Assembly (NCBI GenBank): GCA_964645245.1
Contig: CAZYBS010000001.1
Location: forward strand, 91,388 to 155,387
DNA: 64,000 bases
Direction of reading: 5' to 3'
Origin: an uncultured Candidatus Saccharibacteria bacterium
Lineage (GTDB): Bacteria > Patescibacteriota > Minisyncoccia > Phycocordibacterales > UBA9973
The first letter of the stretch is position 1. Each line of letters starts with the position of its first letter. Below, in pieces: positions 2,806-51,310 of the stretch. Position numbers and translations under genes: made by a program. The notes under the pieces were generated by a model. The model saw nothing but the letters and a program-made list of their open reading frames with translations, ran no database searches and was not told the DNA's origin.

Positions 2806-3597
2806 ATGACTCGTATACAACAACAAGAGCATATAAATCTGGAACAATCTTTAATAGAGATAGGCCTTTCAAAGAAGGAGGCGGGAGTATATATTGCATT
2901 ACTTTTACTCGGCCATGGAACAGTCTCGCAAATCTCTCGCCGGGCCAATATCAATCGTACGACTGGCTACGATATTCTGGACTCCCTGTCCACCAAAGGA
3001 CTCGTCAGCATTTCCGGCAAGGAACCAAAACAGGAATACAGCGCCGAATCACCGGAAAATTTAAGCAAGTTTATTTCCGAAGATATAAAAAATAAAAACG
3101 AAGCATTAAAAAAAACGGAAGAGATTATTCCAGAATTGAAATCAATACATAATGTGAAAGACCGGCCAAAAGTATTTTTTTATGAAGGCCGGGAAGGATT
3201 GGAAAAAGTTTATGAAGATACGCTTACTTCAACTGAGACCATCCGGGCTTATGCAAATGTAGAGCATATGAATGCAGGACTGCCGGGATATTTCCCAGAA
3301 TATTTCAAGAGGCGAGCTTCCAAGGGAATTTTTATTCGCGGTATTGGTCCAAAAACAGAAGAAAATATTGAACTAGGGAAACGCAATGTTGAAGAAAAAC
3401 GTGAAATGGCTTTAGTCCCGAGAGATAAATACGACTTTGTTCCGGAAATAAATATTTATGATAATAAAGTTATGATTGCTTCCTGGCACGAACAACTCGG
3501 CATCATTATTGAAAGCACGGAAATAGCCGATGCGATGAAAGTAATATACGAACTCGCCTGGGCCGAAGCAAAGAGATTGGATAAAACTGAAAATTAG
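2806..3597 (+). CDS. TrmB-family transcriptional regulator (paralog 1 of 3)
   Basis: N-terminal winged HTH (LSKKEAGVYIALLLLGHGTVSQISRRANINRTTGYDILDSLSTKGLVS) plus a C-terminal TrmB-like domain. About 70% identical to the ORF at 15796..16584. Confidence 0.6.
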   Translation: MTRIQQQEHINLEQSLIEIGLSKKEAGVYIALLLLGHGTVSQISRRANINRTTGYDILDSLSTKGLVSISGKEPKQEYSAESPENLSKFISEDIKNKNEALKKTEEIIPELKSIHNVKDRPKVFFYEGREGLEKVYEDTLTSTETIRAYANVEHMNAGLPGYFPEYFKRRASKGIFIRGIGPKTEENIELGKRNVEEKREMALVPRDKYDFVPEINIYDNKVMIASWHEQLGIIIESTEIADAMKVIYELAWAEAKRLDKTEN

Positions 3598-4160
3598 TAT
3601 TTTCTAATCACCGCCTTTAGAACTGCGTTGATGTTAAGAGTATAAGTTGGATAGATTGGCTTATAATTTTTATTGGCGGGTTCCAGCCAGACTTTGGCGC
3701 CATTTTTGCGAAAGTATTTCATCGTGAATTCCCCGTCTACTTCGGCGATAACTATCTCGCCGTCTTTCGCCTGATTGGTCTTCTCCACCAAGACCATGTC
3801 GCCCTTTTCTATATGTGCGTCTATCATAGAGTCCCCGTCCACTTCCAGCATATAAGTTAACGCTTTGTTTTTAACAAGTAAATCGTCAAGGTTCACGGTG
3901 TCCGCCAATTCTTCTTCCACTGTGGCTGGGAATCCCGCGGTGACAAGCCCGAGCATCGGAACTTCTCCGAAAATCTTGCTTGGGACGAGTCTGCCCAAAT
4001 GATCTTTCACCACCAATCCGGCCTCCATCAATTTCTCCACCACTCTAAACACGGCGTTCTTGGATTTGAAGCCGAAAAGTTTCGTCATTTCCGAGTAGGT
4101 GGGCATTCTTTTATTTTGCGAGTAGAAAGATTCTAATTTTATTTGGTGTAGATTACGCAT
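3594..4160 (-). CDS. lexA: LexA repressor (S24 peptidase, SOS regulator)
   Basis: N-terminal wHTH and a C-terminal S24 domain with the GDSM catalytic Ser motif and a conserved Lys (…EVDGDSMIDAHIEKGDMVLVE…GEIVIAEVDGEFTMKYF). Confidence 0.85.
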   Translation of the reverse strand: MRNLHQIKLESFYSQNKRMPTYSEMTKLFGFKSKNAVFRVVEKLMEAGLVVKDHLGRLVPSKIFGEVPMLGLVTAGFPATVEEELADTVNLDDLLVKNKALTYMLEVDGDSMIDAHIEKGDMVLVEKTNQAKDGEIVIAEVDGEFTMKYFRKNGAKVWLEPANKNYKPIYPTYTLNINAVLKAVIRKY

Positions 4161-4359
4161 AGATGTTCTTGCGGAAGAATAAGTGAATCATTCTTTGCGC
4201 AAGACTTCGTCTGGTATGATAGCGAACTTTCTGCAAGAGTAATTTATGATCTCTGGCTTCCTTAAAATACGCTTCCCCTTGGAGAATTTTCAAATCAATT
4301 TTCTTGTTGATTTTCTGTATTTCCCTTTCTAACATTTTTAAATATTGTGTTTGTAACAT
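4153..4359 (-). CDS. Small hypothetical protein translationally coupled to lexA (its stop overlaps the lexA start)
   Basis: 68-aa ORF whose TAA overlaps lexA codons 2-3. No recognisable ribosome-binding site, so this is uncertain. Confidence 0.25.
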   Translation of the reverse strand: MLQTQYLKMLEREIQKINKKIDLKILQGEAYFKEARDHKLLLQKVRYHTRRSLAQRMIHLFFRKNIYA

Positions 4360-4380
4360 AAATAATAAATTTAGTAATAA

Positions 4381-4436
4381 TACCCCCTCCTATTTCTCCT
4401 CCCCCTATATAGGGGGAGGCTGGGTAGGGGTAAGGA
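4381..4436. repeat. GC-rich palindromic repeat element, family A, intergenic copy
   Basis: TACCCCCTCC…CTCCTCCCCCTATATAGGGGGAGGC…GGGGTA. Nested inverted repeats. Same family as the in-frame copy inside ksgA at 32338-32397. Confidence 0.7.
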
Positions 4437-4456
4437 ACGACCTGCAGTTAGTATAA

Positions 4457-4472
4457 GTGAACGAGCGTTCAC
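4457..4472. promoter_or_regulatory. LexA operator (Cheo-box type, GAAC-N4-GTTC) between divergent lexA and a GC-rich small ORF
   Basis: gtGAACgagcGTTCac is a perfect palindrome matching the GAAC-N4-GTTC SOS-box consensus of Gram-positive and many other phyla. It lies ~85 bp upstream of the ORF at 4555 and ~100 bp upstream of the small ORF that precedes lexA. Confidence 0.5.
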
Positions 4473-4554
4473 TTGTCAATATGGGGCTGTGGATAACCCA
4501 AAATGATTAAAAATAGATATTAAGCTATAGTTTTGTTGGAGAGGAGAACACGCA

Positions 4555-4851
4555 ATGCTCAAACCACTTCCAGGTATTGTCATCGGCGTCTTGCTGGTGC
4601 TCGTATTCTATGGCGTAAATATCTGGTCGGCCTCTCAGGCCGATTATCGGCACGAGATTGCCACCGCAGAAATCCTGCTTAGGGGCGATCAAGTATCGCC
4701 CACTGAGTACGAAGAATTTTCCAAAATCGGGTGTTTCTTGAACACCAAGTCCCGCTACTTCTACAAGCGCGTAACTGAGCAGGGACTCAAGAGAGAGGAA
4801 GTGGAAAGGCTCTGTGCGAGCGTGCAGGTCAGGGCATTCGTCGTGAATTGA
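4555..4851 (+). CDS. Small GC-rich membrane protein (N-terminal TM helix), putatively SOS-regulated; hypothetical
   Basis: 98 aa. GGAGAGGAG ribosome-binding site 7 nt upstream. TM helix GIVIGVLLVLVFYGVNIW. Local GC ~52% against a ~38% background. Followed by a hairpin and T-run at 4858-4940. An ORF on the opposite strand overlaps it, which is typical of GC-rich DNA. Confidence 0.4.
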   Translation: MLKPLPGIVIGVLLVLVFYGVNIWSASQADYRHEIATAEILLRGDQVSPTEYEEFSKIGCFLNTKSRYFYKRVTEQGLKREEVERLCASVQVRAFVVN

Positions 4852-4857
4852 GTTCAT

Positions 4858-4940
4858 GTGCGGGGCGACAGCGGTTTGGATAAAATCAGTCTCGACGGGA
4901 AAAGCGCTTGACGCTGCCCCGCCGAGACTTTTCCTTTTCT
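4858..4940 (+). terminator. Hairpin (gcggggcgacagcg…cgctgccccgc) followed by a T-rich tract
   Basis: Inverted repeat of ~11 bp with a large loop, then ttttccttttct. Candidate terminator of the 4555 transcription unit. Confidence 0.3.
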
Positions 4941-5008
4941 GACTTAATACCATAATAACCACGGCCGTTGCTATTATGATATTATATAAAATTTCCAGCT
5001 AGGCAAGC

Positions 5009-6565
5009 CTAACTATTCACTTTCGGCCGATACTGTATCGCCTCCAGGATATGATTCGCTTGCACATCGGGAGAACTTTCCAAGTCGGCGATGGTACGGG
5101 CGATTTTGATGACGCGGTGATAGGCGCGGGCGGAGAGTCCAAGACGCTCGGCGCTGTCATCCAGCAAATCCCTGACTTCTTTAGTAAGTTTAACCATGCT
5201 TCCCAAGTCTTTGACATTCATTTCACTATTGGTGGCTATATCTCTATTTAATTTTTGAAATCGGCTTTTCTGAATTTCTCGCGCTTTTTGCACACGCACT
5301 TTTATTTTTTCGCTCTCCTCCCCGTCCCGCTTACTTCCCTCTGCGCCCAGCTTTTTATAATCCACATTGCCGACCGAGACCCAGAGGTCAATGCGGTCTA
5401 TTATTGGTCCGGATAACTTTCTTTTATACCTGTCCAAGTCGGACGGCTTGCAGATACATTGTTTCTTTTTGCTTCCGGCATTTCCGCAGGGGCAAGGATT
5501 CATCGCCGCAATTAAAATAAAATTAGACGGGAAAATTGCCGAGCCTTTGGCGCGGGAAATTGAAACAATATTATCTTCCAATGGCTGCCGCAGCGACTCT
5601 ATCACTCTTTTTTCAAATTCCGGAAATTCATCCAGAAATAAAACCCCTCGGTGCGCCAGCGTCACTTCCCCCGGTTTTGGATATGTTCCCCCGCCGACAA
5701 TAGAGACATAAGACGAAGTGTGATGCGGAGCGCGGAACGGAGGGAAACACACCAGCTCGCCCCTGGCACTTCCGGCCACCGAATGAATACCGGTTATTTC
5801 CAAGACTTCGTCAGCACTTAAATCAGGCAATAAACCCGAGAACACTCGAGCCAGCATCGTCTTGCCGGTGCCGGGCGGACCATACATGGCAATGTTGTGT
5901 CCGCCCGCCGCGGCAATTTCCAGCCCGCGCTTGGCGCCTTCTTGCCCGCGAATGTCGGAAAAATCCCCGCCTTTCATTTCTCTCTTGTAACTTATTTTAG
6001 TCTTCGGCTGAGCAGGGATTTTCTTTTTTTTATTTTCCAAGTTTTTCTTTTCATTAATATGTTCTATAACTTCTTGTAAATTGCCAGCGCCGAAAATTTT
6101 TAGACCCTCTACTAATGCCGCTTCAACTGCATTTTCTTTGGGCAAATATATTTCCTCATATCCGCGCCTTTTGGCTTCTTCCGCCAGTGGCAGCGCCCCC
6201 CGGATACTGCGCAGTATGCCATCCAGCCCCAGTTCGCCTAGAAAAATCCTTTTCTCCGAATTAAATTTAATATCACCGCTAGCAGAAAGATAGGCAATAG
6301 CAATCGCCAAATCAAAAAACGGCCCTTCTTTTTTTAAGTCAGCCGGTGAAAGTGAGACGGTTATTTTTTGATTTTTGGCTTTCGGAGATTTAAAACCGGA
6401 ATTTTTTACGGCGCCGCTGACTCGGTCTTTTGATTCATCCACCGCTTTATCCGGCAGACCCACCACACTAAAAGCATGAAGTCCTTTTGATAAATCCACC
6501 TCAATTGTCACAATGACTCCTTTTAACAAATTTACTTGGGCTGAATAGACTTTGGCAAAAGACAT
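5009..6565 (-). CDS. comM: YifB/ComM-family Mg-chelatase-like AAA+ ATPase
   Basis: N-terminal Lon-like domain, Walker A GPPGTGKTMLA, and a C-terminal Mg-chelatase domain. 518 aa. Confidence 0.85.
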   Translation of the reverse strand: MSFAKVYSAQVNLLKGVIVTIEVDLSKGLHAFSVVGLPDKAVDESKDRVSGAVKNSGFKSPKAKNQKITVSLSPADLKKEGPFFDLAIAIAYLSASGDIKFNSEKRIFLGELGLDGILRSIRGALPLAEEAKRRGYEEIYLPKENAVEAALVEGLKIFGAGNLQEVIEHINEKKNLENKKKKIPAQPKTKISYKREMKGGDFSDIRGQEGAKRGLEIAAAGGHNIAMYGPPGTGKTMLARVFSGLLPDLSADEVLEITGIHSVAGSARGELVCFPPFRAPHHTSSYVSIVGGGTYPKPGEVTLAHRGVLFLDEFPEFEKRVIESLRQPLEDNIVSISRAKGSAIFPSNFILIAAMNPCPCGNAGSKKKQCICKPSDLDRYKRKLSGPIIDRIDLWVSVGNVDYKKLGAEGSKRDGEESEKIKVRVQKAREIQKSRFQKLNRDIATNSEMNVKDLGSMVKLTKEVRDLLDDSAERLGLSARAYHRVIKIARTIADLESSPDVQANHILEAIQYRPKVNS

Positions 6566-7814: not shown

Positions 7815-10031
7815 CTATTTATTTCCGCCAAAGGCGGATCCGCCTCGGGCGGAGAAAAAATCTTTATCGGCTTCCTTGATAGACAAACTGATTCTCCCCA
7901 TCTCCCTATCAACTTTTATAACCTTCACCGGAACAATCATACCTTCTTTTATTATATCGCTAACTCGTTCCACGCGAAATGGCGCCAATTCAGAGATATG
8001 CACCATCCCATCGGTAGAAGAATTAAGCCTAACAAATGCCCCAAATTCGGCAACTTTCACGACTTCGCCTTTGAGCACATCCCCCACTGCATATTCGTGC
8101 GTTATTTCTTCCACGATAACCTTGGCAGCCTCGGCTGAACCATCTTTGCCTGTAAGATAGACTGTTCCATCATCTTCAATGGTAATTTCCGCCCCAGTCC
8201 TTTCTTTAATTTCTTTAATGGTCTTGCCCCCGCTACCAATTACCATGCCAATCTGGTCCGGCTTAATTTTAATAATCAAAATCTTCGGAGCATTTGGAGA
8301 AATATTTTTACGTGGAGCTGGAATTTCTTTTTCAATTCTATCTATTATAGCCACTAGCGCTTTTTTTGCTTGCCTCATCGCCTCGCCCAATATTTTTATC
8401 GGCACTCCTTCCACTTTCACATCGAGTTGTATAGCAGTGACCCCTTCTCGTGTGCCGGCAATTTTAAAATCCATGTCGCCATGATGATCTTCCGGCCCTT
8501 GGATATCCGTTAAGATCTTATATCTTAACGGCGCTGAACTACGCGAACTAGACGCTGACTGACGCTGAATTTTGTCTGCGTTTTTCTGCGTGAAGTCTAC
8601 GGCGGTCTGCGGCGCTAGCATAAGCCCCATCGCGATGCCGGCGACCGGCGCCTTGATTGGTACCCCGCCGTCCATCAGGGCAAGGGTAGAAGCGCAAATT
8701 GAAGCCTGAGAAGTAGAACCATTCGAAGCCATAGATTCAGAGACGACGCGTATCGTATATGGGAACTCTGCAACAGTTGGTAAAACCATTGCCAGTGCTT
8801 TTTCAGCCAGGGCGCCATGACCGACTTCCCGACGATTAGTAAATCCCGCTCTGCCCACTTCCCCTCCCGAATAAGGTGGAAAGTTATAGTGATGCATAAA
8901 TCTTTTTTCAACTTTTAATTGCATGCCGTCAATTAAGTGCCTGTCTTCCGGACCGCCCAGTGTCAGTACGGAGAGAACGTGTGTTCCCCCGCGGTAAAAA
9001 ATTCCAGAACCATGCAAGACGGAAGATATCCCCCCAGCCTGAGCATAAAGGTCGCGAAGTTTATCCATTCCCCTGCCATCGGCGCGTTTGTTTTCTTTTA
9101 TAGCTTTGTCATGCAATATATTATTTTCTGTATCATCAAATAAATTATCCTCTAAAACGAAATCTTCCCGGTCAGGAAATTTTTCTTTTACAAAATTATT
9201 CCAGGTGGTGTGCAGTGCATCTATTTTTCCTTTGCCTGCGCCGGAGAAAATAGCCTCCTCCATCTTGGGCAGAATATTTTCATTAAATAATGCCACCGAT
9301 TCCGGAGAGATTTGCTCTTTTTCTATGACTCTTTTTTTCTTGCCTATTTCGGCAACTACTTTCTTCTGGAAATTTTCTAGTTTGGTAATTTCCTCGCTAG
9401 CTCGCCTGAGAGCCTCTTCCAATTCTTCTTCTTTAGTCTGATGGGCCGCTGCTTCAATCATATTGATATTCCCACCTTTACCACAAACTGTTAAATCAAA
9501 TTTGTATTCCGAGTTCTCGTCACATAGCTTTGATGAGACATTGATTTTCAGGTTATTGTTATCATATTTGCCTATTTTTACAGCGCCAATCGGCCCATTC
9601 CAGGGAATATCGGAAACAAGAAGGGCAAGCGAGGCCGCATTCACGGCCAGTATCGTAGGGTCATTGTCGTCAACGGAAATAACTGTCACGATTACTTGCA
9701 CCGCATGGCGAATGGATTGGTTAAAAAGCGGACGGAGCGTCCGGTCAATAACCCGGCTAGCCAATATTGCATCCTCGGACGGCTTGCCTTCTCTGCGGGT
9801 AAAGCGAGAACCCAAAATTTTCCCGGCTGCATAGAATTTCTCCACATAGTCAACCGTCAAATTAAAAAAGTCTAAACCTTCTCGGCTATCTTTAGACATA
9901 CAAACAGTCGCCAGAACGACACTCTCGCCGTACTTCAACATTACTGAACCATGAGCTTGTTCGGCCAAATCCGTAAAAATAGCAGTCAAAGTTTTTCCAC
10001 CAATTTCCACCGAGTATTCTTTTTTTTGCAT
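7815..10031 (-). CDS. pnp: Polynucleotide phosphorylase (PNPase) carrying lineage-specific insertions
   Basis: Two RNase PH-like core domains, a KH domain (GGKTIKEIKERTGAEITIEDDG) and an S1 domain (GDVLKGEVVKVAEFGAFVRL). 738 aa. A ~30-aa insert sits in the second core domain. Confidence 0.9.
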   Translation of the reverse strand: MQKKEYSVEIGGKTLTAIFTDLAEQAHGSVMLKYGESVVLATVCMSKDSREGLDFFNLTVDYVEKFYAAGKILGSRFTRREGKPSEDAILASRVIDRTLRPLFNQSIRHAVQVIVTVISVDDNDPTILAVNAASLALLVSDIPWNGPIGAVKIGKYDNNNLKINVSSKLCDENSEYKFDLTVCGKGGNINMIEAAAHQTKEEELEEALRRASEEITKLENFQKKVVAEIGKKKRVIEKEQISPESVALFNENILPKMEEAIFSGAGKGKIDALHTTWNNFVKEKFPDREDFVLEDNLFDDTENNILHDKAIKENKRADGRGMDKLRDLYAQAGGISSVLHGSGIFYRGGTHVLSVLTLGGPEDRHLIDGMQLKVEKRFMHHYNFPPYSGGEVGRAGFTNRREVGHGALAEKALAMVLPTVAEFPYTIRVVSESMASNGSTSQASICASTLALMDGGVPIKAPVAGIAMGLMLAPQTAVDFTQKNADKIQRQSASSSRSSAPLRYKILTDIQGPEDHHGDMDFKIAGTREGVTAIQLDVKVEGVPIKILGEAMRQAKKALVAIIDRIEKEIPAPRKNISPNAPKILIIKIKPDQIGMVIGSGGKTIKEIKERTGAEITIEDDGTVYLTGKDGSAEAAKVIVEEITHEYAVGDVLKGEVVKVAEFGAFVRLNSSTDGMVHISELAPFRVERVSDIIKEGMIVPVKVIKVDREMGRISLSIKEADKDFFSARGGSAFGGNK

Positions 10032-13404: not shown

Positions 13405-13656
13405 CTAGGGGTGTGGGATCCAAATCATAGGAGCAGGCAGGGCTTCTTGCGAAGTCTGCCCTTTAACCGCACCGGTAACCGCGAACGCAAACGCCCAGAA
13501 TTCATCTACGAGAGTATCGAGCATTACATATGCTCCGAGTCCCTCAGACAAAGCTCTGACGTGCTGTTCAACGACGCGCTCCAATGCTTCTCTTTTCTCT
13601 GGCGGCAAGTCGGCCAACCAGATGGGCCGCGAACGGAGATCGATTAGTCTGTTCAT
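13405..13656 (-). CDS. GC-rich small protein (83 aa), hypothetical; a LexA box lies ~25 bp upstream
   Basis: AAGAGGAAAA ribosome-binding site. Helical, protein-like sequence (…EKREALERVVEQHVRALSEGLGAYVMLDTLVDEFWAF…). ~55% GC. Has its own terminator. Confidence 0.4.
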   Translation of the reverse strand: MNRLIDLRSRPIWLADLPPEKREALERVVEQHVRALSEGLGAYVMLDTLVDEFWAFAFAVTGAVKGQTSQEALPAPMIWIPHP

Positions 13657-13681
13657 GGTTTTCCTCTTGACTGTTGTAAAG

Positions 13682-13695
13682 GAACCGTTGTTCTG
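13682..13695. promoter_or_regulatory. Second Cheo-type LexA box (GAAC-N4-GTTC)
   Basis: gGAACcgttGTTCtg. It lies between the GC-rich ORF on the minus strand and the divergent TrmB-like gene. Confidence 0.4.
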
Positions 13696-13780
13696 TCGCG
13701 TTATTGCAACAGAATCTTACCCGATTACAATTTATCACTATTTGACAATGATTGATATAGTGTCGTATACTTACGACAAC

Positions 13781-14572
13781 ATGATAGAAAACATCTTAAA
13801 ATCACTTAGTTTCGACGAGGACGAAGTAAAGACATATCTTTACCTTTTAGAACGCGGACCTTTGACTGCTGGCGCTTTGGCAAAAAGTTTAGGCGTCCCT
13901 CGTTCCTCGATATATGGATTTCTAAAACGGCTCGCAGGCGATAACTTGGTGGTGGAGTCTCAAAAAAGCGGGATAAAAATATTTTCCGCTGAATTGCCAG
14001 AAAAAATAAATTTGTTGTTCAGTCAGAAAATGGAAATTTTACAGAAAGCACAAGACGACTACATAAAAATATTACCCGAACTGAAAAGTAAGAAGGGTGA
14101 AAAATATCAAACTCCAAAATTTCAAGTATTTGAGGGTGCGGAAGAATTAAAAAACGCCCTCAAAGACATGCTTTTATATCGTGACATAAAAACTCAAGCC
14201 TACTGGCCACAAAAAAAGATGGTGGAAATTTTGGGTGGAGAATTTTTCCGTTACCATAACCAGGAACGCATCAAAAATAACATTTCAGTACATGCAATTT
14301 GGCCACAACATCAAAAAGTGGAAGTTAAGAACCATCCGTATTTCGGCAGCGGCAAAGAATTTCTGCGTGAAATTCGTATCACTCCCCCAGGTATCGATTT
14401 TCATATGGGTTATTGGATTTATGGCAATAAAATTGTTTTTATTTCATCAACTCAAGAAAGTTTCGGCTTTATAGTACAAAGCCAAGAAATGGCGCAGATG
14501 TTAAAAACACAATTTGAAATCTTGTGGCAAATATCCAGGCCACTTCTAGATAAATCAAGAAAGTTTAACTAA
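13781..14572 (+). CDS. TrmB-family transcriptional regulator (paralog 2; start uncertain, alternatives at 13622 and 13748)
   Basis: wHTH segment SFDEDEVKTYLYLLERGPLTAGALAKSLGVPRSSIYGFLKRLAGDNLVV matches the N-domain of the other two TrmB-like ORFs. Confidence 0.5.
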   Translation: MIENILKSLSFDEDEVKTYLYLLERGPLTAGALAKSLGVPRSSIYGFLKRLAGDNLVVESQKSGIKIFSAELPEKINLLFSQKMEILQKAQDDYIKILPELKSKKGEKYQTPKFQVFEGAEELKNALKDMLLYRDIKTQAYWPQKKMVEILGGEFFRYHNQERIKNNISVHAIWPQHQKVEVKNHPYFGSGKEFLREIRITPPGIDFHMGYWIYGNKIVFISSTQESFGFIVQSQEMAQMLKTQFEILWQISRPLLDKSRKFN

Positions 14573-48621: not shown

Positions 48622-48724
48622 ATCCCCATTCTATAGTATTATCCACAGTTTATCAACATAGTTAATAAGTTTTTATGGATTTTTATAGGTTTTATTTATT
48701 AGGTAAATAGTATAGTATGGAACG
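48622..48724. promoter_or_regulatory. Putative oriC / dnaA promoter region with DnaA boxes
   Basis: Perfect DnaA box TTATCCACA at 48631-48639 and TTATCAACA at 48642-48650. AT-rich spacer between rpmH and dnaA. An additional TTATCCACT sits at 50147-50155 in the dnaA-dnaN spacer. Confidence 0.5.
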
Positions 48725-50074
48725 ATGAATACAAAACAGCTTTGGGAAAATTGTCTGATTGAAATTGAAGCAGGGATGTCCAAAGCGAATTTTAGCACTT
48801 GGTTTAAAAATACATCTATTATAAAAGAAGATACGGGTACCATTTATATTGGCGTGCCAAATGAATTTGTTCGTGATTGGCTTATGAATAAATACCATAA
48901 ACTCATCACCAGGACTATCGCCAACGCCTATGAAAATATGCGGGCGGTAGAATACATTATTGCCAAAATGGAAGTAGTTAAGCAAGAATTGGCTACAACC
49001 CCGGAGAATGTAGGTTATATAAATAAAGAACTACCTCTGAAAGATCTTTACATAAATCCGGAAGATAACTTAAACCCGCGCTATCATTTTAATTCTTTCA
49101 TCGTGGGATCTTTCAATGAACTTGCCTATGCTGCATCTCAAGCAATAATAGATAGTCCGGGTACGAAATATAATCCATTTTTCGTCTATGGGGGCACCGG
49201 CCTCGGCAAAACTCATCTGATCCAAGCTGTGGGAAATTCAATAAAAGAGAAGTACCCAAATAAAAAGGTGCACTATATGACTTTAGAGAAGTTTGCTACC
49301 GACTTTATAAATTCATTGCAGAGCAACAAGGCAAATTCCTTCAAAGAAAAATACCGTAAGTATGATCTTTTAATTATAGATGACATTCAATTTATAGGTA
49401 AAATGGAAAAAATCCAGGAAGAACTTTTCCACACATTTAACACCTTTCATGAAAATAATAAGCAAATCATTTTTTCTTCTGATAAACACCCTAATTATAT
49501 TCCTGAATTAGCGGACCGTTTAAAGTCTCGTTTTGCTGCTGGAATGATAGTGGATATCTCCCCGCCGGAGTATGAGCCCCGTCTGGCAATTTTAAAAGTA
49601 AAATCACAAGAACTTGATATCAATCTAGATCAAGAAGTATTGGAATACATTGCCGGGGCGATAGACGGTAATATTCGAGAACTTGAAGGAAGTTTAAATA
49701 CCATCGTCTGCCAATATCGCTTGAAAAATAGACCTCTTTCACTGCCAGAGGTAAAAAACCTGCTCAAAAATAACATGAAGCCTAAAAAAAATATGGCTAT
49801 AAAAGATGTTGTGAAAATAGTGAGTGAATATTATAAATTGGAAGAGGCATCGGTTTATGAAAAAACCAGAAAGAAAGAGATAGTCCGAGCAAGGCAGGTG
49901 GTTATGTATTTACTCCGAGAAGATTTTAATGTATCATACCCTTTAATTGGGCAAAAATTGGGTGGGAAGGACCACACAACGGTAATACATTCATATCTAA
50001 AAATTAAGGCGGATCTAAAAAACGATCCACAATTGTCACAAGAATTAGAACAAATAAGAATTACATTTAAATGA
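48725..50074 (+). CDS. dnaA: Chromosomal replication initiator DnaA
   Basis: AAA+ Walker A GGTGLGKTHLIQAV and a C-terminal DNA-binding domain. 449 aa. Confidence 0.9.
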   Translation: MNTKQLWENCLIEIEAGMSKANFSTWFKNTSIIKEDTGTIYIGVPNEFVRDWLMNKYHKLITRTIANAYENMRAVEYIIAKMEVVKQELATTPENVGYINKELPLKDLYINPEDNLNPRYHFNSFIVGSFNELAYAASQAIIDSPGTKYNPFFVYGGTGLGKTHLIQAVGNSIKEKYPNKKVHYMTLEKFATDFINSLQSNKANSFKEKYRKYDLLIIDDIQFIGKMEKIQEELFHTFNTFHENNKQIIFSSDKHPNYIPELADRLKSRFAAGMIVDISPPEYEPRLAILKVKSQELDINLDQEVLEYIAGAIDGNIRELEGSLNTIVCQYRLKNRPLSLPEVKNLLKNNMKPKKNMAIKDVVKIVSEYYKLEEASVYEKTRKKEIVRARQVVMYLLREDFNVSYPLIGQKLGGKDHTTVIHSYLKIKADLKNDPQLSQELEQIRITFK

Positions 50075-50212
50075 TTATTGGCAAGTTGTTAGACAATAAT
50101 TAAAAACAGTGAAACATATTAAACAACACCAAATAAGATTAAACGTATTTATCCACTTATCAACACCATTAATAGTATTAGTAAGTTAAATAAATAAAGA
50201 TATAAACATAAT

Positions 50213-51310
50213 ATGAAACTAGAGTGTAGTGTTGAAAATGTTAAAAATAAAATTTCCCAAGTAGAAAGAATTACCGGTAAAAACCTAACCTTGCCTGTTT
50301 TAAACTCAATTCTCTTAATTGCATCCGGAAAATCTTTAAAACTTAGAGCTACAAATTTAAGTCTTGGTATTGAAGTTGAGATTCCCGCGAAAATAGAAAA
50401 AGAGGGAATACTGGCTGTTTCCGGGTTGGTGTTAAGCGGTATTTTTTCTAATATTTTTCAAAATGAAAATGTTTACCTTGAGGGTCTTGATGGAAATTTA
50501 TTGATCCAAACAAAAAAAAGTAAAATAAAATTAAAAGGCCAGCCACACGATGATTTTCCGACCATACCAAAAGTTACCGGAACAAATTTTGAAATAGAAT
50601 CAAAAAAATTAACGGATGGCATAAAAGCGGTTTATTATAGTTCTTCCGTATCGGACATAAAGCCTGAAATTTCAAGTGTTTTCATGTATACCAATGAAGA
50701 TAATTTGGTATTTGTTTCTACTGATTCTTTTAGATTGGCTGAGAAAAAAATTAAAATAAAAGGACTTGGAGAAATTCCTGGAATTCTCATTCCATTTAAA
50801 AATGTTTCAGAAATATTAAGAGTTTTTGGGGAATTTGTTGGTATTATAAAAGTGTGTTTCAATAAAAATCAAATTTCTTTTTCATCTGACGATGTTTATC
50901 TAACTTCACGGGTAATTGACGGAGTTTTTCCCGACTATCGCCAAATCATCCCCAAAAACTCTTCAACCAATGCTATCGTGCTGAAGCAAGATTTATTAAA
51001 TGCGCTGAAGCTTTCCAATATTTTTTCCGATAAATTCAACCAAGTGAATTTAGCAATTAAGCCCCAAGAGAAGATTTTTGAACTCTCCTCCGCTAACAAC
51101 GAAGTCGGAGAAAATAAAACATATTTGGATGCCGCTCTAAATGGAGAAAATATTGAGCTTGGTTTTAATTATAAATATTTTTTAGATTGTTTTCAATCAA
51201 TTACCACTGATAGCCTGTCCATAAAACTCTCCGGAGCCACCAGCCCGATCACAATCTCCCCAGTGGGAGATACCTCATTTATTTATCTTATAATGCCGAT
51301 GAATAGGTAA
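50213..51310 (+). CDS. dnaN: DNA polymerase III beta sliding clamp
   Basis: 365 aa, three-domain clamp pattern, immediately downstream of dnaA. Confidence 0.9.
   Translation: MKLECSVENVKNKISQVERITGKNLTLPVLNSILLIASGKSLKLRATNLSLGIEVEIPAKIEKEGILAVSGLVLSGIFSNIFQNENVYLEGLDGNLLIQTKKSKIKLKGQPHDDFPTIPKVTGTNFEIESKKLTDGIKAVYYSSSVSDIKPEISSVFMYTNEDNLVFVSTDSFRLAEKKIKIKGLGEIPGILIPFKNVSEILRVFGEFVGIIKVCFNKNQISFSSDDVYLTSRVIDGVFPDYRQIIPKNSSTNAIVLKQDLLNALKLSNIFSDKFNQVNLAIKPQEKIFELSSANNEVGENKTYLDAALNGENIELGFNYKYFLDCFQSITTDSLSIKLSGATSPITISPVGDTSFIYLIMPMNR

Follow-up and report, generated by a model that had tools for sequence, protein, structure and literature searches.

The lexA region of an uncultured Candidatus Saccharibacteria bacterium (Patescibacteriota; UBA9973) was analysed within a window of 64,000 nucleotides (assembly GCA_964645245.1, contig CAZYBS010000001.1, positions 91,388 to 155,387), to which the positions below refer unless another locus is named. 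In this region a conserved LexA-type operator, lying inside the promoter of a two-gene p68-lexA operon and accompanied by a perfect DnaA box, stands between the operon and a divergently oriented gene for a 98-amino-acid (aa) protein; homologues show the latter, which is followed by a new structured RNA motif, to be a true gene, and its family is very rare. By analogy with the small division inhibitors encoded next to lexA in Gram-positive bacteria, the product of this small gene is a credible candidate for a damage-induced cell-cycle brake. The chances that it is a DNA-damage or replication-stress effector, a positional analogue of YneA, SosA, ChiZ and DivS that would delay division, are considered to be about even.

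The predicted LexA operator GTGAACGAGCGTTCAC (4457-4472), with its GAAC-N4-GTTC core, occupies the spacer of the minus-strand p68-lexA promoter (4450-4479; -35 TTGACA at 4479-4474, 18 nucleotides (nt), -10 TATACT at 4455-4450), which matches the consensus at 11 of 12 positions; an operator filling the -35/-10 spacer represents the classical geometry of lexA autoregulation. The core motif is seen three times in the window against 0.63 expected, while the 16-mer GTGAACGNNCGTTCAC is present as a single copy, even when two mismatches are allowed. For the study of its conservation, the LexA sequence was searched against one genome per GTDB species, which yielded 80 loci, nearly all from Nomurabacteria/Paceibacterota, with LexA proteins 77-86% identical to that of the window. 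Conservation of the promoter block was counted over 85 related loci and presence of the whole block over 87, and uniqueness of the operator beyond the window was assessed in 746 kb of related genomes with up to two mismatches. The LexA box is present at the coordinates given in the initial annotation. The 16-mer is exact in 83 of the 85 loci, and the TTGACA and TATACT hexamers are retained in 84 and 81 of them, respectively. Every one of the 80 loci has exactly one GAAC-N4-GTTC box, directly upstream of a p68 homologue, and the block comprising promoter, operator and DnaA box occurs once in each of the 87 loci and nowhere else in the 746 kb. The part matching window positions 4449-4497 (50 nt) is the sole conserved non-coding DNA across the related loci. 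The operator is thus conserved far beyond chance, and its identification as the conserved LexA-type operator of an autoregulated lexA operon is supported by the sequence comparisons.

A scan for GAAC-N4-GTTC, proposed in the initial annotation as a check, was carried out here over the window and the 80 related loci; the extended 16-mer, searched in the window and the 746 kb, occurs only at lexA promoters. The two other core matches in the window, at 8975 (inside pnp) and at 13682-13693 (in or just before an open reading frame (ORF) for a TrmB-like protein), lack the extended palindrome and are probably due to chance. The window has two such TrmB-like regulators on the plus strand (2806-3597 and 13622-14572), and the 13682-13693 box lies near the probable true start of the second.

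As in the Cheo-box lexA operators of Gram-positive bacteria, the palindromic GAAC-N4-GTTC core is contained in the core promoter that serves lexA. There are three differences: the conserved palindrome extends further, with 14 fixed positions (GTGAACG-NN-CGTTCAC); the -35 hexamer has a DnaA box at a constant place 7-10 nt upstream of it; and lexA is the second gene of its operon, behind a conserved 68-aa ORF. The lexA gene (3594-4160, minus strand) encodes a 188-aa repressor with an S24 peptidase domain; the product scores 126.4 bits against the TIGR00498 equivalog model, for which the curated cut-off is 110.95, and the Peptidase_S24 domain is detected with E = 1.6e-29. An Ala-Gly cleavage site (in LVTAGFP), a serine in GDSM and a lysine in FTMKYF, all read from the translation, are taken by analogy to correspond to A84-G85, S119 and K156 of Escherichia coli LexA.

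The 68-aa ORF preceding lexA, designated p68 (4153-4359, minus strand), was recognised from the reading frame and its homologues, and its overlap of 8 nt with the lexA start (ATGCGTAA) bears out the translational coupling of the two genes that had been proposed. At least 545 homologues were found, with identities of up to 94%, and a p68 homologue precedes lexA in the related loci. The AlphaFold2 model consists of two helices (predicted local distance difference test (pLDDT) score 87). No match was obtained for p68 in Pfam, NCBIfam, PHROG and PADLOC, and the fold search returned generic helical hairpins only; p68 is a conserved, uncharacterised partner of LexA in the Nomurabacteria-like lineage. 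The 5' leader of the operon includes a perfect 22-nt palindrome CCTCCCCCTATATAGGGGGAGG (4398-4419, minus strand), which recurs at 95% identity in loci L005, L008, L030, L050 and L075; downstream of it, GGAGGGGG could pair with the 5' arm of the palindrome. An obvious ribosome-binding site is not seen in front of p68.

The DnaA box TTATCCACA (4488-4496, minus strand; TGTGGATAA on the plus strand) is perfect, as had been annotated, and lies 8 nt upstream of the lexA -35 hexamer. It is perfect in 82 of the 85 loci, and in 81 of these it is located 7-10 nt from the -35 hexamer. The same 9-mers, or versions with one mismatch, cluster on both sides of dnaA-dnaN in the window (48639, 48650, 50149 and 50157; span 48639-50165), which strengthens the reading of 4488-4496 as a DnaA box. 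The replication origin region is probably represented by the segment 48136-51310, at a distance of 44 kb from lexA, which comprises rnpA, dnaA (48725-50074), dnaN (50213-51310) and the clusters of DnaA boxes (48639/48650 and 50149/50157). The fixed position of the box suggests an input of DnaA into lexA expression. Joint control of an SOS gene by DnaA and LexA has been described for uvrB of E. coli, a DNA-damage gene whose promoter region likewise combines a consensus DnaA box with a LexA operator (PMC6015884). The present case would differ in concerning another phylum and the promoter of lexA itself, in which a single predicted box keeps a fixed position.

The small gene (4555-4851, plus strand) is preceded by a strong ribosome-binding site, GGAGAGGAG at 4538-4546. 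The initial annotation had credited it with this site, an N-terminal membrane helix and a hairpin terminator of its own, all of which were corroborated, and had placed it across a divergent region of about 400 bp from the lexA unit; the spacer between the start codons of the small gene and p68 is 195 bp (4360-4554), and about 400 bp is reached only when counting from the lexA start. An exhaustive phmmer search of 1.8 billion representative proteins identified seven small homologues of 98-114 aa (28-44% identical, E down to 2e-15), with the large repetitive proteins in the hit list left out of the family as spurious. Two further members, at loci L094 and L095, were retrieved by using a 21-mer of the conserved element downstream of the gene as a DNA probe of metagenome contigs. 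The family therefore has 10 members (the window protein, seven from phmmer and two through the 3' element), which are 24-44% identical; the membership of the two that are not lexA-linked, P0130 and P0127, was confirmed by independent profile comparisons with 97-98% probability. The residues M1, C60, F69 and C87 are invariant across the 10 members, which share a positively charged N-terminus rich in MK or MKR, a hydrophobic stretch of about 20 residues, the motif (E)IATAR.LL.G and an acidic region after the helix.

The AlphaFold2 model of the 98-aa protein, computed with the family alignment, has a pLDDT of 83 and comprises helices at residues 5-28, 32-42, 49-59, 64-75 and 80-97, that is, an N-terminal membrane helix followed by a four-helix domain that carries the two invariant cysteines, a layout assigned to all ten members. 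Because the N-termini are rich in MK or MKR and the region after the helix is acidic, the sequences fit a topology with the N-terminus inside and the C-terminus outside by the positive-inside rule, and the cysteine pair of the outer domain probably forms a disulfide. The protein gave no significant match to Pfam (E up to 0.1), NCBIfam, PHROGs, PADLOC and PDB sequences, nor did its fold to PDB and BFVD with Foldseek. In a word-indexed search of 5.8 billion proteins it matched only itself and the family profile matched known members only, and nothing was found in a scan of metagenome contigs with a back-translated pattern of the family.

Apart from the window, homologues that are oriented divergently to p68-lexA and occupy the interval between the lexA promoter and comM are P0123 (L081), P0124 (L083), P0125 (L084, on a 1-kb contig that stops before comM), P0128 (L089) and the members at L094 and L095; P0126 (L085) is on a short contig that opens with the same lexA promoter block. 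Eight of the ten members, namely the window protein and seven others, are thus linked to lexA, one is found at nucleotide-excision-repair genes and one elsewhere. The repair-linked member, P0130, lies between uvrB and uvrA in a cluster of the order uvrB-X-uvrA-uvrC-UDG (UDG, uracil-DNA glycosylase; L090 / L091 2629-9554), and one of its two metagenome-assembled genomes (JALYJR01) has its own lexA locus, L041, which lacks the small gene and in which comM abuts the promoter. The remaining member, P0127, adjoins an IS110 fragment and redox genes. Linkage of the small gene to DNA-damage genes is thus seen in two settings that are independent of each other. No LexA operator was detected in the 10-kb uvrB-X-uvrA-uvrC-UDG locus (L090 / L091), and therefore the nucleotide-excision-repair genes of the P0130 genome may not be under LexA control.

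Comparison of the lexA-linked loci with the window revealed that the flanking proteins are well conserved (LexA 77-80%, comM product 83-85% and p68 69-79% identical) and that the small protein is only 24-41% identical, from which it follows that the small protein evolves fast with its position retained. The base composition of the gene had earlier been read as a sign of foreign origin, with about 52% G+C (GC) in a genome of about 38%. The figure for the ORF stands (51.5%); that for the background does not, the window having 40.5%, with comM at 46.7%, lexA at 44.4% and other 300-bp stretches of the window reaching 0.53-0.55. Family members have a GC content of 52-56% (P0127 48%) and a third-codon-position GC of 0.57-0.71 in loci of 41-48%, so that each homologue is 5-10 GC points (6-11 in the locus comparisons) above its own locus. 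High GC is therefore a trait of the whole family and not the mark of a recent import. Of the terminator element, locus L059 retains no more than the 3' half, which directly adjoins the DnaA box and indicates a loss by deletion. Taken together, the GC trait and the L059 remnant argue against the foreign origin and for the small gene being an old resident of this slot that has been lost repeatedly.

The gene is followed by a structured 3' element (4860-4941, plus strand; alignments A7 and A8), composed of a terminator hairpin with a U-tract and an upstream arm (GCGGGGC...) that is complementary to the hairpin loop. Copies are present at L081 3289-3363, L083 2923-2999, L084 970-1040, L085 457-531, L089 2606-2677, L090 5333-5405, L093 471-399, L094 555-485 and L095 2661-2737. 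The element is about 79 nt long (75-80 nt), begins 8-11 nt past the stop codon, has the consensus GCGGGGYGGC ... GTCTCG ... GGAAAAGCGCTCGACGCCRCCCCGCCGAGACTTTTCCTTTT and is far better conserved than the coding sequence of the small gene. Its hairpin (4887-4929) has a G+C-rich stem directly followed by the U-tract UUUUCCUUUU and had escaped a simple terminator scan because the stem is long and irregular. The terminator can be paired through GGAAAAG/CTTTTCC and CTCG/CGAG, or through GTCTCG/CGAGAC with inner pairs, and the upstream arm is complementary to the 12-nt loop (GCCRCCCCGC). Minimum-free-energy folding gave the long-range helix in three of the four sequences tested and the terminator fold in the window copy.

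Standard pairs fill 95.5% of the pair cells of the element, against about 55% in slid controls, with one covarying pair (C-G or U-A); all full-length copies keep the same terminator pairs and the same U-tract, and L089 has a matched 1-nt deletion on both arms. Shuffle statistics were not significant, the sequences being few and similar. The covariance model of the element, R1, matched only downstream of the family genes, at the L059 remnant and at one unrelated site in L093, where the copy (91.5 bits) follows an unrelated 91-aa GC-rich ORF downstream of rpsL-rpsG. No match was found in Rfam for window 4300-5050, which takes in the leader of the p68-lexA operon as well (E up to 1), nor in viral contigs searched for the element, and the element is a new structured RNA motif. 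As the stem always lies at the same distance from the stop codon, it may be speculated that the terminating ribosome selects between the terminator and the alternative fold. An origin of the element from an integron attC site or a phage was rejected, as no conserved R''/R' core sites were seen by eye and no viral contig matched. Another, degenerate DnaA box at 4875-4883 was weighed as a possible insertion-junction repeat; it is found in the window copy only.

The candidate promoter of the small gene (4503-4531, plus strand) has a weak -35 hexamer (ATGATT, 4503-4508), a 17-nt spacer and a -10 hexamer (TATAGT, 4526-4531); with 8 of 12 consensus matches it falls under the scan threshold. The geometry was read from the six lexA-linked loci first examined, L094 and L095 having been added later. 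In each of the six, the ATG is preceded at 17-23 nt by a -10-like hexamer, which is 33-37 nt away from the centre of the DnaA box and is accompanied by a weak -35 and a strong ribosome-binding site; the distance from operator centre to ATG is 85.5-96.5 nt. In L084 the DnaA box lies 10 nt further from the lexA -35 hexamer, yet the spacing of 33-37 nt to the small-gene -10 is kept; it is 28-30 nt in L094, and in L095 the region is rearranged. With a presumed transcription start near 4538, the centres of the operator and the DnaA box in the window are at about -73 and -46, respectively. Locus L095 contains at 2237-2340, between the DnaA box and the small gene, a palindromic insertion (CCCTGTAGTAG...CTACAGGG) resembling a miniature inverted-repeat transposable element and flanked by duplicated GGATAAC.

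In the mechanism proposed here, the p68-lexA promoter of this Nomurabacteria-like (Parcubacteria) bacterium would be blocked by a LexA dimer that occupies GTGAACGAGCGTTCAC in the -35/-10 spacer, with the DnaA box just upstream of the -35. The small gene, back-to-back with this promoter and equipped with its own promoter with a weak -35, a strong ribosome-binding site and a structured terminator, would be expressed once the divergent control region is de-repressed. Its product would be a bitopic protein with a short positive N-terminus inside the cell, one membrane helix and an outer four-helix domain of about 70 aa, probably held by a disulfide; it would act on the machinery of division or of the cell wall at the external side of the membrane and in this way delay division.

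The proposal draws on the SOS division inhibitors of Gram-positive bacteria, small proteins anchored by one membrane helix, with the C-terminus outside the cell, that are encoded adjacent to lexA and are mutually non-homologous, the SosA proteins of staphylococci being 25-60% identical (PMC6851548). The small gene resembles those of SosA, YneA, ChiZ and DivS in its divergent orientation to lexA and in its product, which falls in the size range of about 80-110 aa, carries one membrane helix at the N-terminus and has a C-terminal part predicted to be outside the cell, and it shares with SosA a fast divergence at a kept position (PMC6851548). LexA control of the small gene is plausible by this analogy and by its closeness to lexA, and division inhibition by its product is only inferred from it. 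The likeness to the yneA-lexA arrangement that had been noticed earlier is retained as a signature of position and architecture (8 of 10 members being lexA-linked) and abandoned as homology to YneA or ChiZ. For the LexA boxes supposed to be shared between the two units, one operator was found, which lies inside the lexA-operon promoter and, in contrast to the situation in the Gram-positive systems, does not overlap the candidate promoter of the small gene. SidA and DidA of Caulobacter, as well as TisB, are SOS-linked short hydrophobic peptides of about 29-70 aa that are not known to have a folded outer domain or to be encoded adjacent to lexA. They have in common with the small protein a small membrane-inserted product linked to SOS; the latter, with 98 aa and a structured domain, is far larger than SidA-type peptides, and the earlier comparison with SidA was not sustained.

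Several observations weigh against a role of the small protein as a damage-induced division inhibitor. It has no sequence or fold similarity to SosA, YneA, ChiZ and DivS, and the LysM domain of YneA and ChiZ is absent (Pfam, E up to 0.1), the outer part being instead an all-helical bundle with two invariant cysteines. The host belongs to the candidate phyla radiation (CPR/Patescibacteria), and, unlike the Gram-positive inhibitors, the small gene has a very patchy distribution, with none of the 80 closest lexA loci carrying it in tblastn searches with the 98-aa protein and only eight clusters among the 1.8 billion representative proteins. The single operator is placed for the lexA-operon promoter and is centred about 73 nt upstream of the candidate start of the small gene, and therefore too far for simple occlusion of the small-gene promoter; no second LexA box was found in 4497-4555. 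In L095 the operator is 150 nt from the ATG after the palindromic insertion, the ORF being intact, and the loci of P0130 and P0127 lack an operator within three mismatches. The shared position beside lexA could also result in part from common descent. Finally, the comM-lexA spacer ranges from 29 nt to 2.9 kb among the 74 loci compared; comM abuts the promoter in 27 of them, ending 29-73 nt before the operator, and other spacers hold unrelated cargo (a HAD hydrolase, DUF5672, DUF5674 and unknown ORFs), and this variable cargo marks the spacer as a variable hotspot. In L004, L009, L030, L021 and L061 the cargo is oriented divergently and lies about 72-80 nt from the operator. A terminator-like hairpin at 4996-5015 on the minus strand, identified by a hairpin scan, closes comM in the window (5009-6565, same strand; Pfam Mg_chelatase, ChlI and Mg_chelatase_C).

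These properties of the spacer admit another explanation, in which the small gene is a passenger in a recombination hotspot, encoding an envelope or secreted accessory protein without a role in DNA damage that came to lie beside lexA only through one ancestral insertion into a spacer tolerant of insertions. Such an explanation would account for the varied lengths and unrelated genes of the spacer, some of them divergent at similar distances from the operator, for the absence of the gene from the closest lexA loci, for an operator that does not cover the small-gene promoter and for the IS110 fragment and redox genes next to P0127. It is nevertheless regarded as rather unlikely, since the position has been kept across lineages at 24-41% protein identity despite the turnover in the slot, the uvrB-uvrA setting is an independent second context and the architecture matches that of the known lexA-adjacent inhibitors.

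Direct control by LexA could alternatively be replaced by control through DnaA, promoter competition or supercoiling coupling of the back-to-back promoters. Among these, the possibility that the small gene responds mainly to DnaA, and hence to replication status, and not to LexA, with TTATCCACA at about -46 as a shared activator/repressor site, was weighed separately and appears improbable. The near-invariance of the box and its fixed distance from the lexA -35 hexamer speak for it, as do the 33-37 nt spacing to the small-gene -10 in six loci, L084 included, the occurrence of the same 9-mer around dnaA-dnaN and the uvrB precedent in E. coli (PMC6015884). The box is, however, equally conserved where the small gene is absent and so belongs primarily to the lexA promoter, the spacing is shorter in L094 and disrupted in L095, and the loci sampled are few and share common descent. 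A lone DnaA box is often a weak site, and the one considered here is predicted from sequence.

A third explanation, that the gene encodes the membrane toxin of an SOS-linked type I toxin-antitoxin system similar to TisB or DinQ, with an antisense RNA directed at the 3' element, would agree with a small, membrane-inserted product encoded beside a LexA operator and with an unusually conserved 3' untranslated element. It is considered very improbable, as the protein of 98 aa carries a conserved domain of about 70 aa that is soluble and folded and has an invariant cysteine pair, and is not a hydrophobic peptide of 30-50 aa, and the opposite strand of the element has no conserved antisense promoter or terminator, only the plus-strand U-tract being invariant. 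The remaining alternative, that the ORF is no gene but a chance frame in a GC-rich spacer or the shadow of an antisense 145-aa ORF (4962-4525), could invoke the self-match in the word-indexed search and the long ORFs on both strands, but it has a negligible probability and is effectively refuted by phmmer homologues of the same length with conserved hydrophobic and cysteine positions, by the contexts and invariant residues, by the conserved strong ribosome-binding site and terminator, and by the lack of conservation of the antisense ORF, whose sole match (32 aa) is the conserved 3' element read in the wrong frame.

If the damage-effector role of the small protein is combined with the other elements of the locus, the lexA region may be pictured as a two-input switch, with the LexA operator reporting damage and the DnaA box reporting replication, which drives two back-to-back promoters; with the 98-aa protein, which would have a new fold, the CPR would gain their first checkpoint effector for SOS or replication stress, and the 3' element would be a translation-sensing terminator switch. 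Taken as a whole, this picture is a tentative one and is held to be unlikely in all its parts at once. Much of bacterial diversity belongs to the CPR/Patescibacteria, whose members have tiny genomes and have for the most part not been cultivated, and we know of no account of how they couple DNA damage or replication trouble to division. As the family is very rare, any role of the small protein would be specific to a lineage and not general. The RNA motif at its 3' end is held tighter in sequence than the protein that it follows, and the lexA promoter of a whole CPR lineage, with a DnaA box beside the operator, suggests that replication status and damage may be read at one promoter. With a new family that has the position and architecture of the Gram-positive inhibitors, the locus provides a concrete candidate for the coupling of DNA damage to cell division in the CPR.

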